Origin: Escherichia coli
GTDB lineage: Bacteria; Pseudomonadota; Gammaproteobacteria; Enterobacterales; Enterobacteriaceae
Direction: 5' to 3' (one strand)
DNA length: 64,000 bases
Assembly (NCBI RefSeq): GCF_001677475.2
Contig: NZ_CP015229.1
In this document: piece by piece, positions 11,354 to 14,079 of the stretch
Layout of the letters: each line of letters starts with the position of its first letter
How positions within the stretch are numbered: the stretch's first letter is position 1
The notes under the pieces: model-generated
What the model was told of the DNA's origin: nothing
Databases searched by the model: none
Seen by the model: only the letters and a program-made list of their open reading frames with translations
Made by a program: the position numbers and the translations under genes

Positions 11354-11552
11354 AGCAGAGTTATTTCAGAAAATATCGGCTCTCGCGACTGAATGCCACG
11401 CTATAGCATCTGAGCTTGATGTTGGCGATGAACGAACCGAGATGTTCGAAATATACAGTGTGCTGCGCAATCTCTGTCGGCGTGGCTACGCCACTCAAGT
11501 AGGGCGAATGACTAACCCACTACTCTCATCCTGTGATGAGGATGACGAATGA
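11346..11552 (+). CDS. hypothetical protein
   Basis: 68-aa track ORF overlapping neighbours by a few nt. Confidence 0.4.
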   Translation: MNKAELFQKISALATECHAIASELDVGDERTEMFEIYSVLRNLCRRGYATQVGRMTNPLLSSCDEDDE

Positions 11553-12214
11553 TGCATAAATCAGTAGCCGGTGAGTTTCAGAAGGAAGTCGATAATACTA
11601 CCGTTCTATTGGACGATATTTTAAGCATTCTCGCGCTGCTTGAGGCTGGCGATTGGTCAGAACATTGCACTAAAACAGAGCTAGGCGGTCGGCTTGAAAG
11701 AGAGATTACACGGCTTGTTGGTGATGCGCAGGAAGCTACAGTCACTAGTTATGAGTTAATCGCTGAAGCCTGGCGTTTGATGGATGGACAAGATCCTAAA
11801 ACAAGCGATTGGCATAGCAAGGCTTCGAAGTATTTAAATTCCAATAGGGTAGAAAAAGTTGATGATGTGAAACCGAAGCCAGTAGACCACGGTTTCCGCG
11901 ATAACTGCGAATGCTCTAGTTGCCAGACCACGGCCCGTATTTGTTCCGAATTGACAGATAAGTCCAGCCTAATCTACGAAGTTAATGTAGGCGGTAATAC
12001 ATGGGTCGAATGCACAAGAGCTGCATACGTAAGAGCAAAAGACAAGGGTGAATTAACCAGAGTTGTTACCAATCACCCAAATAATGAGCTTAAAGATCAC
12101 CAGATTCGAGAACTGGTGAACGAGTTGAGGGATATTGCGGTTCAGTACCACGGAACGCAGCAATTGCGGGAGAAGATTGCCAGAGCAGTGAACAACTCAG
12201 TCCGTAAAAAATAA
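11549..12214 (+). CDS. hypothetical protein
   Basis: 221-aa track ORF; ATGA overlap with the upstream ORF. Confidence 0.6.
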   Translation: MMHKSVAGEFQKEVDNTTVLLDDILSILALLEAGDWSEHCTKTELGGRLEREITRLVGDAQEATVTSYELIAEAWRLMDGQDPKTSDWHSKASKYLNSNRVEKVDDVKPKPVDHGFRDNCECSSCQTTARICSELTDKSSLIYEVNVGGNTWVECTRAAYVRAKDKGELTRVVTNHPNNELKDHQIRELVNELRDIAVQYHGTQQLREKIARAVNNSVRKK

Positions 12215-12427
12215 GCAATAGTACGATAAAGAGGCCCCATGCTCTTGATGGGGCCTGTAGCAACTAGCGTTATGGACGCTGGTTTACGTACTCAATGATC
12301 GCTTTGATAATCGCGAACATCGGCGGCACGATTTTGAACAGTAAGTTAACCATAACAGGTCTCACTTAGTTTTATCGCGCCTAGCTGCAAATACCTTTGG
12401 GCTTGCCTTTGCAGTTGCAATATCTGT

Positions 12428-12620
12428 AGTCGCCAGATACTTACGGCACGATTTCGAGTTAAGGTAAGGTTTTAGAGTCACCAAAAACCTGGACTTAAAT
12501 CTTCTTTGAGAACAACGATGTTTAGTAAATGGTCATTATTACCTGGTATGACCACTCAACGTTTCTTGATGAATCCAGTACATTCGGTTAATCTTAATTC
12601 AGTCGCCAGATACTTATGGC
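12428..12620 (+). repeat. two 20-bp direct repeats AGTCGCCAGATACTTAYGGC (12428-12447 and 12601-12620) in a structured non-coding region
   Basis: 19/20 identical copies 173 bp apart, with several hairpins between and after them; no ORF with a plausible start in 12215-13015. Confidence 0.6.
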
Positions 12621-12653
12621 TCAGGAACAGAGCCGCAAACTCTGTTTCCTCTT

Positions 12654-12685
12654 AAAAAGCCCAGCCTAGTCAACTGGGCTTTTTA
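12654..12685 (+). terminator. rho-independent terminator
   Basis: AGCCCAG-loop-CTGGGCT stem with A-run before and T-run after. Confidence 0.7.
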
Positions 12686-12980
12686 ATGTCTATTTTTAAC
12701 CCAATGAACCTTCAATACCGCAACATCAGTGTCTTGCGAATTAAGATAGTGTGTATAGGTTATACATGCAAGTGCATAACTCTGTGGATAACTCAGGAAG
12801 GAAAAAGTAGCTTCCGCGCAATTTAGGCCAGACAAGGCTTTCGCAAAAGTCAACGGAGAGAAAAAATTTGTTAAAAATAACGTTTGTTGGAATTGTATAT
12901 ATTTATGCCTTTCAATAGTTAGCATCTTATTAACATCTTTTTTAAGAGATAGAGTTCAAAAATATATAGCTTCAACATAT

Positions 12981-13000
12981 ACCGTATGTATATACAGTAT
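12981..13000 (+). promoter_or_regulatory. LexA (SOS) box-like sequence upstream of humD
   Basis: ACCGTATGTATATACAGTAT: perfect CAG half and alternating TA core, CCG instead of CTG in the other half; 16 nt before the humD ATG. Confidence 0.4.
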
Positions 13001-13015
13001 TAAGAGGCGAGTATT

Positions 13016-13405
13016 ATGGGCTTCCCTTCTCCTGCGGCGGATTATGCTGAGAGCCGTATTTCTCTTGATCAGCAGATAATTAGACATCCTTCAGCGACCT
13101 ACTTCATGAGGGCAGCTGATAGTCATCACCGTGAGGGAATATTGCAGGGTGCTTTGCTGGTGGTTGATTCTTCGCTTACTCCAGTTGATGGTTCGCTGCT
13201 TGTCTGCGCTATGGAGGGTGAATATCGCATAAAGAGATACCGAAAGTATCCGCGTCAGCACCTTGAGGATTTAAGCACCGGGAAGAAAGAGGCGTTACCA
13301 GTAGATGACGATGGTTACACGGGTAGTAATGCTGTTTTTGGTGTGATCACTCATGTCATTAATGATGCCCGAAGTGGGGAATTTGATGATTGTCCGGTGA
13401 TTTAA
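13016..13405 (+). CDS. humD: UmuD-like protein (LexA/S24 peptidase fold)
   Basis: 129 aa; UmuD-like S24 fold with a putative SOS box upstream; sits immediately before phd-doc as in P1. Confidence 0.8.
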   Translation: MGFPSPAADYAESRISLDQQIIRHPSATYFMRAADSHHREGILQGALLVVDSSLTPVDGSLLVCAMEGEYRIKRYRKYPRQHLEDLSTGKKEALPVDDDGYTGSNAVFGVITHVINDARSGEFDDCPVI

Positions 13406-13470: not shown

Positions 13471-13477
13471 GGTGTTT

Positions 13478-13699
13478 ATGCAATCCATTAACTTCCGTAC
13501 CGCGCGCGGCAACCTTTCTGAAGTGCTCAACAATGTTGAAGCCGGGGAAGAGGTTGAAATCACTCGCAGAGGCCGTGAGCCAGCAGTAATTGTCAGCAAG
13601 GCTACTTTCGAAGCCTACAAAAAAGCGGCGCTGGATGCCGAATTTGCATCCCTGTTTGACACCCTGGACTCCACCAACAAGGAACTGGTAAACCGATAA
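13478..13699 (+). CDS. phd: Phd antitoxin
   Basis: 73 aa [49 protein letters not shown]... matches P1 Phd as recalled; stop overlaps the doc start. Confidence 0.92.
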
Positions 13700-14079
13700 T
13701 GAGGCATATATCACCGGAAGAACTTATTGCGCTTCATGATGCGAATATAAGCCGCTACGGCGGCCTGCCGGGAATGTCAGATCCGGGTAGGGCAGAGGCC
13801 ATTATCGGGAGAGTTCAGGCCAGAGTTGCCTACGAAGAGATCACCGACCTTTTCGAAGTCTCCGCCACCTACCTGGTGGCTACTGCGAGAGGGCATATAT
13901 TCAATGATGCCAATAAGCGTACCGCGCTAAACAGTGCGCTGCTATTTCTACGCCGTAACGGGGTGCAGGTATTTGATTCACCAGAACTGGCAGACCTTAC
14001 CGTAGGGGCTGCGACCGGAGAGATATCTGTATCTACTGTCGCCGCCACGTTACGTAGATTGTATGGTTCTGCGGAGTAG
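13699..14079 (+). CDS. doc: Doc toxin (Fic-fold kinase)
   Basis: 126 aa [25 protein letters not shown]...; size and sequence as P1 Doc. Confidence 0.92.

Follow-up and report, generated by a model that had tools for sequence, protein, structure and literature searches.

What could a densely structured gap of about 450 bp upstream of humD encode, if it carries two near-identical 20-mers and several hairpins? The gap lies in a 64,000-nucleotide stretch of Escherichia coli DNA (contig NZ_CP015229.1; hereafter the window), in which an initial annotation, made from the letters alone, had marked positions 12215-12700 as non-coding and as one or two small RNAs or a protein-binding array. Here, we describe positions 12224-12687 as a self-contained cassette, which is likely to be a type I toxin-antitoxin (TA)-like module of the trans-encoded, divergent kind. 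The in silico data support a conserved open reading frame (ORF) for a short peptide, a small RNA (sRNA) gene, the strand of each of the two transcripts and a co-evolving duplex between them. Three features of the module class are present, namely an ORF for a hydrophobic peptide of under 60 aa, which is conserved as coding sequence and of moderate hydrophobicity, a predicted divergent, non-overlapping sRNA gene that lies 5' of the toxin gene and possesses a promoter and a terminator of its own, and an extended complementarity of 20-25 bp between the sRNA and the toxin mRNA's 5' untranslated region (5'UTR) that is kept in evolution. Type I TA modules are systematically missed by annotation, and few Gram-negative families are known. 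The features of the cassette and its flanks are compiled in Table 1.

Table 1. Features of the cassette and its surroundings, with positions in the window (HP, hairpin; SD, Shine-Dalgarno sequence; E1 to E3, pairing elements of the mRNA leader)
Feature	Position	Strand	Remarks
221-aa ORF	11549-12214		directly upstream of the cassette; 'hypothetical' in phage Cyrano
Rho-independent terminator of the peptide mRNA	12256→12224	-	stem 12256→12232 (AGGCCCCAU...AUGGGGCCU), then CUUUAUCG tail
Peptide ORF, 27 codons + stop	12353→12270	-	ATG start; type A peptide MVNLLFKIVPPMFAIIKAIIEYVNQRP; putative type I toxin
E3, UCGUGCC	12325-12331	-	codons 8-10; alternative partner of E2
SD-like GUGAGA	12360-12365	-	weak; GUGAGG in near relatives; in a local hairpin with the AUG (consensus pairs 146-161 with 169-183)
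E2, GGCGCGA	12375-12381	-	pairs with E1 (leader) or E3 (inside the ORF)
HP2, CUGCAAA...UUUGCAG	12385-12414	-	leader hairpin, nearly invariant
Target hairpin	12419-12442	-	loop UGGCGACUA complementary to the sRNA 5' end; holds part of repeat copy 1
Repeat copy 1	12428-12447	-	putative antisense target within the leader; 75-94 nt before the AUG
E1, UCGUGCC	12445-12451	-	5' strand of the long-range helix with E2
HP1, AGGUUUU...AAAACCU	12467-12490	-	leader hairpin
sRNA promoter	12566-12594	+	-35 TTGATG 12566-12571, 17-nt spacer, -10 TAATCT 12589-12594
Repeat copy 2	12601-12620	+	sRNA 5' end (first 20 bases)
sRNA, ~85 nt	12601-12687	+	putative antitoxin; seed 12601-12620, stem-loop 12624-12649, terminator 12654-12684 + U-run
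humD	13016-13405		Peptidase_S24
phd	13472-13699		flanking gene
doc	13699-14079		flanking gene

The peptide ORF and the predicted small RNA gene

The initial annotation had stated that no ORF with a plausible start occupies positions 12215-13015. This statement was wrong, as an ATG-started ORF of 27 codons runs leftwards on the minus strand and its peptide is conserved across diverged relatives. The relatives considered here comprise, after removal of duplicates, 36 distinct sequences, the lowest identity to the window being 55% (single loci are given as L numbers). In every relative, an ORF of about 25-28 codons starts at a position equivalent to about 12353, runs leftwards and stops just short of the left terminator. 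Hereby, two paralogous peptide types can be distinguished, type A, which is found in the window, and type B, e.g. MALLLLFLKLAHPVAAIITALLGYLKDR. Among 13 distinct type A genes the variable sites are distributed over codon positions 1, 2 and 3 as 15/5/23, and because this variability corresponds to coding-type constraint, we judge the ORF to be a translated gene. Type A occurs alone in the window, type B alone in L003 and L064, and in many other loci B is followed by A on one transcript, with type A carrying a strong AGGAGG ribosome-binding site. Tandem ORFs of this kind (type B MALLLLFLKLAHPV..., then type A MVALLLKIVPPM...) were seen left of the leader on the minus strand in L004, L005, L013, L016, L017, L020, L021, L042 and L048.

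The peptides range from 0.86 to 1.36 in grand average of hydropathy (GRAVY), with the window peptide at 0.86, and share a conserved Pro-Pro/His-Pro motif. In protein databases they appear solely as 'hypothetical protein', and plasmid records almost never annotate the ORF. A full-text literature search for the peptide motifs gave no match, T1TAdb and the bulk candidate lists of Fozo et al. 2010 being outside its scope. The terminator that follows the ORF was flagged by the terminator scan on the minus strand only (12256→12232). At the same place, the relatives possess different GC stems and U-runs with compensatory changes (consensus pairs 268-273 with 283-288).

The strong terminator that had been noted at 12654-12685 was recovered on the plus strand as an inverted repeat of 13 bp without mismatches (12652-12664 / 12674-12686) and a T-run behind it, and it closes the sRNA gene. 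The promoter of this gene falls below the cut-off of a simple promoter scan; its two blocks, TTGA(A/T)G as well as T(T)AA(G/T)(C/A)T, are conserved with a fixed 17-nt spacing in an alignment of 15 lineages, in which TTGA and TTAA do not vary. The identity between the two repeat copies begins at A12601, exactly 7 nt downstream of the -10 block, and the complementarity to the target begins at the same base. In its consensus fold the sRNA starts with a seed, which includes a weak GCCA/UGGC hairpin of 4 bp, and continues with a stem-loop and the terminator. In this structure 97.7% of the cells are paired and five pairs show double changes, which corresponds to a covariation score of 0.242 as compared to 0.145 ± 0.012 in shuffled alignments (0/500 reach 0.242). 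Sliding the pairing partners against each other lowers the pairing to 58% or less. Moreover, the helices hold G·U pairs on the plus strand, which supports the strand assignment.

A covariance model built from the sRNA scores 90 bits at 12601-12684, and between 54.6 and 99.5 bits in Citrobacter and Kluyvera genomes and in a mis-binned metagenome-assembled genome (MAG; see below). A second sRNA at repeat copy 1 was considered and rejected, as no conserved plus-strand promoter or terminator is present there and the covariance model matches the seed only (20 bits). Of the 'one or two small RNAs' proposed initially, one can thus be retained, whereas the other repeat copy represents a predicted antisense target in the leader of the minus-strand mRNA. 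A search of the window against Rfam yielded no family above threshold, the sub-threshold matches to AgrB, Thr_leader, MicC and others being largely driven by the terminator. In line with the initial annotation, no tRNA or transfer-messenger RNA was found in the window.

Predicted pairing between the two RNAs and structure of the leader

The two 20-mers described before, AGTCGCCAGATACTTA(C/T)GGC, are located at 12428-12447 and 12601-12620, 173 bp apart from start to start, and differ in one base. Further copies of the 24-mer at the sRNA 5' end were not found in the 64-kb window on either strand with up to 4 mismatches allowed. Since copy 1 is part of the predicted minus-strand transcript and copy 2 part of the predicted plus-strand transcript, the two RNAs are complementary although the repeats are direct at the level of the DNA. 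RNAduplex predicts a continuous duplex of 20 bp (one G·U) between sRNA positions 1-20 and 12447-12428, with an extent of 12450-12427 and an energy of -38.5 kcal/mol, compared to -18.7 ± 2.7 kcal/mol for 1000 shuffled sequences. In most relatives the duplex is longer (24-25 bp) than in the window, and its overlap with the leader element E1 amounts to 6-7 nt instead of 3 nt. The spacing between the copies is variable among the relatives, ranging from 152 to 178 bp.

Both copies are kept in the related phages and co-vary across 12 distinct sRNA/target combinations. In all 12 of them positions 2-20 are paired, and position 1 is unpaired in L005 only. Compensatory double changes occur at four positions; in the L005/L042 lineage UC→CU is found at positions 3-4, and in the lineage of the window A and U are swapped at positions 14 and 16. 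Three positions alternate solely between a Watson-Crick and a G·U pair. Shifting the register lowers pairing from 94% to about 31%. Wherever the copies differ within the 20-bp core, copy 2 carries T or G and copy 1 C or A, and the opposite type is never found inside the duplex. Such differences yield G·U pairs only with copy 2 on a plus-strand RNA and copy 1 on a minus-strand RNA, which also holds true for the divergent Citrobacter locus L064. At position 17 a U·G pair is kept in 10/12 lineages, which argues against a simple homogenisation of the copies by gene conversion. The directional character of these wobble and compensatory differences is hard to reconcile with protein-binding sites.

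The elements of the mRNA leader were obtained with RNAalifold on the minus strand and from pair counts over 22 distinct leaders. Hereby, HP1, which probably lies at or near the 5' end of the mRNA, shows covariation from A-U to G-C in its basal part, and its U·G wobbles would become C·A mismatches if read on the plus strand. In HP2, pair 92:119 changes from U-A to U·G, which fits a minus-strand RNA only, and pair 99:112 is G·U in 22/22 sequences. Taken together, the leader helices are paired to 95.3% as minus-strand RNA versus 82.8% as plus-strand RNA, a comparison that has to be read in light of the helices having been picked by folding the minus strand; the variation in the leader is nearly always between Watson-Crick and G·U when read on this strand. 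The multiple hairpins listed in the initial annotation are borne out. Both strands fold better than shuffled sequences (z = -2.8 for the plus and -4.3 for the minus strand), the stem-loop and the terminator of the sRNA covary, and the leader helices are supported on the minus strand.

Two long-range helices compete for the element E2. The E1:E2 helix is predicted by RNAalifold, and the E2:E3 helix, which encloses the SD and the AUG, is found in single-sequence minimum-energy folds. E2 and E3 covary, as GCGCGA/UCGCGC in L013 and L021 corresponds to GCACGA/UCGUGC in L020 and L048, at the cost of an Ala→Val exchange in the peptide. The sequences of E1 and E3 make up the 14-mer repeat D4.

From this arrangement we infer the following mechanism. 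The minus strand would give rise to an mRNA whose structured leader measures at least about 140 nt and which further contains the hydrophobic 27-codon peptide ORF and its own terminator; the plus strand would yield an sRNA of about 85 nt from a constitutive promoter. The single-stranded 5' end of the sRNA would nucleate on the loop of the target hairpin and zip into the duplex of 20-25 bp. This duplex could then invade E1 and free E2, so that E2 would pair with E3 inside the ORF and lock the SD and the AUG in a closed domain; it would likely also be a substrate for RNase III. As long as the cassette and its sRNA are present, the peptide would accordingly not be made. The module might serve in addiction to the plasmid-prophage, or in membrane damage triggered by stress or phage, next to the phd-doc addiction genes. 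In its full form, this reading proposes a previously undescribed type I TA family of SSU5/pLF82-type phage-plasmids, with one sRNA, one or two tandem peptides, and a switch between an open (E1:E2) and a closed (E2:E3) state that is tripped by the sRNA invading E1, and which stabilises the plasmid-prophage or aborts competing infections; the chances that all of this applies appear to us to be about even.

Several observations weigh against a TA module of this kind. The peptide of the window is less hydrophobic than classic type I toxins (GRAVY of 0.86 versus 1.4-1.8) and contains a central Pro-Pro. Searches in Pfam, NCBIfam and PHROGs at E ≤ 10 (for NCBIfam and Pfam with four peptide variants) gave no match, including none to a type I toxin model. 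The Shine-Dalgarno sequence of the window, GUGAGA, is weak, and a consensus scan and a custom scan over 15 lineages yielded no credible sigma-70 promoter for the peptide mRNA. Finally, in constrained partition-function folding, blocking the target left the accessibility of SD and AUG unchanged at equilibrium. Any effect of the switch should thus be kinetic or mediated by nucleases, and the case for the E1/E2/E3 switch rests on covariation and on a kinetic argument.

With respect to the start of the mRNA, a conserved, A/T-rich and -10-like element, (T/G)AAATT, is located 7-10 nt upstream of HP1. The variable spacer between the sRNA promoter and HP1 contains a perfect inverted repeat in the window, TGGTCAT-N11-ATGACCA (12530-12554), and a lineage-specific inverted repeat is found at the same place in each lineage, e.g. 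GGAACC-N8-GGTTCC in L004. The repeat of the window could be a hairpin of a longer leader or an operator, which bears on where the toxin mRNA starts.

Neighbourhood and relatives

Positions 12215-13015 of the window are 99.3% identical to Escherichia phage Cyrano, i.e. plasmid pLF82 of E. coli LF82. This identity, together with a P1-like humD-phd-doc block, identifies the window as a phage-plasmid. Beyond humD, Cyrano (L001 7487-9520) carries a gene annotated as 'methionyl-tRNA synthetase MetRS' and a MinD-like gene, and the window carries phd-doc and a DUF968 gene; the maintenance region is hence mosaic between elements that are otherwise 99% identical. To the left, the 221-aa ORF, for which no Pfam family was found, ends 10 nt before the terminator region that it shares with the cassette.

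On the right-hand side, the functional unit ends at about 12687. Positions 12690-13015 represent a P1/P7-like humD upstream region with a LexA-like box, and the right part of the gap (~12767-13015, the humD control region) is the only part in common with P1, P7 and SJ46. The box, CCGTATGTATATACAG, is located at 12982-12997, 19 nt upstream of the humD start codon, and in P7 a LexA site is annotated at the same position. Apart from this box, no CTGT-N8-ACAG-like site was detected between 12200 and 13100, and the cassette thus contains no LexA box. An 80-aa ORF with ATG start (12683-12925, minus strand) was not considered a gene, as it has no Pfam hit and lies within the P1/P7-like segment upstream of humD; one plasmid record (AP026520) lists it as a hypothetical protein. 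A link between the cassette and humD could not be demonstrated; in relatives, other genes adjoin the cassette. In L003-L006 and in relatives from IMG/VR, the sRNA terminator is directly followed on its 3' side (alignment columns ~560-590) by a conserved palindrome, ACTACATGTAGT or CACTATATATAGTG in type, which may be an operator of the neighbouring convergent gene. It is missing from the window, where the P1-like humD region begins instead.

The cassette is kept at 55-99% identity in SSU5/pLF82-type phage-plasmids of Escherichia, Shigella, Citrobacter, Enterobacter, Klebsiella, Kosakonia and Kluyvera. Positions 12215-12770 are present in 97 plasmids (Escherichia 82, Citrobacter 9, Klebsiella 2, Enterobacter 2, Shigella 1, Kosakonia 1), 92 of which are non-mobilizable and which mostly have a size of 85-150 kb. 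The same stretch occurs in 114 of 5426 complete E. coli genomes (~2%), with no annotation under it in any of the listed cases. A pattern search with the conserved leader recovered 44 IMG/VR contigs. In species-representative genomes, the pattern gave ten matches, of which six were chance matches; the others are two Citrobacter contigs, Kluyvera georgiana and one probably mis-binned MAG. The latter (L059, JAEWTL010000044.1), which is labelled as Bacillota bacterium, harbours a near-identical copy of the E. coli-type cassette, and its contig almost certainly derives from an enterobacterial phage-plasmid and was mis-binned. In diverged Citrobacter and Enterobacter phage-plasmids the cassette resides beside different genes in an unannotated gap of 800-1270 bp, and in two relatives of this type rep genes are found within 1-2 kb.

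The cassette is unannotated in essentially every record of its carriers, including the plasmid of the Crohn's-associated strain LF82 (phage Cyrano). If functional, it would constitute a second, RNA-based addiction or stress module beside phd-doc and could help to explain the stable carriage of these phage-plasmids. It would likewise provide a clean system for studying how binding of an sRNA about 80 nt upstream of a start codon silences translation, as compensatory mutants for both the duplex and the E2:E3 helix already exist among the natural variants.

Alternative explanations and comparison with known systems

The RNA evidence applies equally if the peptide is a small membrane protein outside of any TA system, acting e.g. 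in lysis timing, superinfection exclusion or membrane signalling and being silenced by the sRNA in the plasmid state. The merely moderate hydrophobicity, the conserved Pro-Pro/His-Pro motif and the restriction of the cassette to phage-plasmids would fit such a protein. However, a compact cassette with two terminators, a long structured leader and a divergent antisense sRNA is the hallmark of the ShoB, TisB, Zor and DinQ class (PMC8594479), and the cassette resides in a plasmid-maintenance neighbourhood, with phd-doc in the window and rep genes in relatives, so that we regard this explanation as unlikely, albeit deserving some weight. The protein-binding array of the initial annotation, i.e. 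iterons or operators near a replication and maintenance region with incidental hairpins, could account for direct repeats of 20 bp that change in concert between lineages, and for the rep genes close to the cassette in Citrobacter relatives. Nevertheless, two copies with a variable spacing and no tandem phasing do not make an array, the persistent C/T difference is preserved as a U·G pair, and all differences are of the directional wobble type, as needed to preserve an RNA duplex. Moreover, copy 2 starts exactly at the +1 position set by a conserved promoter, with a covarying stem-loop and a terminator downstream of it, and copy 1 lies within a covarying minus-strand RNA fold. We therefore consider protein-binding sites to be very improbable.

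The cassette could also be a type I TA module that is a diverged, true member of the dinQ/dql-agrB family. The layout is identical, the sRNA has the same length and architecture, its central hairpin CAGAGCCGCAAACUCUG resembles the agrB hairpin CAGAGCCACCAACUCAG, and the N-termini of the peptides are similar (MVNLL versus MINLL in DqlB). Furthermore, the covariance model of the cassette finds plasmid agrB end to end with 29.1 bits (E ~4e-5), the terminator-only level being 25.5 bits. On the other hand, the Rfam model AgrB (RF02891) scores the window at 26.4 bits, below the gathering score of 40. True agrA (106 bits), agrB (108 bits) and plasmid agrB (48-62 bits) are clearly recovered, and the reverse strand at agrA gives 26.6 bits and the reverse strand of the terminator alone 25-27 bits. 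At the level of the peptide, the NCBIfam models for DinQ and DqlB gave no match to four peptide variants at E ≤ 10, the signature shared by these toxins (…LELIR…) is absent, and hhalign of the peptide profiles against DinQ/DqlB returned a probability of 0.5%. A search with nhmmer and a profile of the whole cassette reached at most 3.8 bits against dinQ/dql, and the LexA box is lacking. The Prokaryotic Genome Annotation Pipeline (PGAP), which uses NCBIfam, names dqlB and dinQ on thousands of plasmids and nothing at this cassette. Judged by its sequence, the cassette is thus not a recognisable member of the dinQ/agrB or dqlB/agrB families; as a faint resemblance in the hairpin and in the covariance model remains, we reserve a small share of probability for distant homology.

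With a type I TA module as the preferred reading, the cassette can be compared to a class that comprises ShoB/OhsC, TisB/IstR-1, Zor/Orz and DinQ/AgrB, and in which the antisense RNA is encoded 5' of the toxin mRNA in a divergent and non-overlapping manner (PMC8594479). Its layout is the same as that of dinQ/agrB, dqlB/agrB, zorO/orzO and tisB/istR-1, and a direct comparison with dinQ-agrAB of E. coli K-12 and two plasmid loci annotated as dqlB and dinQ revealed the same order of parts at the same distances. The closest parallel is dqlB/agrB of conjugative plasmids such as pOXA-48 and IncX3 plasmids, which is likewise plasmid-borne and usually unannotated (PMC12365149; PMC5066626). Toxicity, rescue, compensatory mutants and post-segregational killing through base-pairing to the 5'UTR have been shown for dqlB/agrB of pOXA-48 (PMC12365149; PMC5066626). 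In both systems, one strand carries a short ORF for a helical peptide and the opposite strand a divergent sRNA of about 85 nt, which does not overlap the ORF and is built from seed, stem-loop and terminator. In both, owing to a direct repeat in the DNA, the 5' end of the sRNA is complementary to a site that lies in the toxin 5'UTR about 75-110 nt upstream of the start codon. They differ in that peptide and leader show no detectable sequence homology, the sRNA stays below the Rfam threshold, the duplex comprises 20-25 bp instead of 35 bp, and the cassette lacks a strong consensus toxin promoter. In addition, the cassette is carried by phage-plasmids rather than conjugative plasmids, and some of its loci encode two tandem peptides.

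For dinQ/agrB, mutually exclusive leader structures have been described, in which binding of agrB closes the SD and triggers cleavage by RNase III (PMC5066626). The K-12 dinQ/agrA-agrB locus resembles the cassette in its 27-aa peptide, its divergent antisense sRNA and its long leader with mutually exclusive pairing elements. Unlike the cassette with its single sRNA and no LexA box, dinQ is chromosomal, regulated by LexA and accompanied by two sRNA copies. In zorO/orzO and tisB/istR-1 a divergent antitoxin sRNA also pairs far upstream of the ribosome-binding site within a long 5'UTR, at a standby or processing region (PMC5397157; PMC8594479). The peptides of these two systems are unrelated to those of the cassette, with no NCBIfam or Pfam match, and the Rfam model OrzO-P (RF02083) yielded no match in the window and at best 34.2 bits in the relative L004, compared to a gathering score of 60. 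The antisense RNA of hok/sok, by comparison, is encoded in cis with an overlap and works via the mok leader ORF, whereas the sRNA of the cassette would act in trans through the repeat. What the cassette would have in common with hok/sok is the presumed role, in which post-segregational killing results from a stable mRNA for the toxin and an antisense RNA that are both encoded on an extrachromosomal element.

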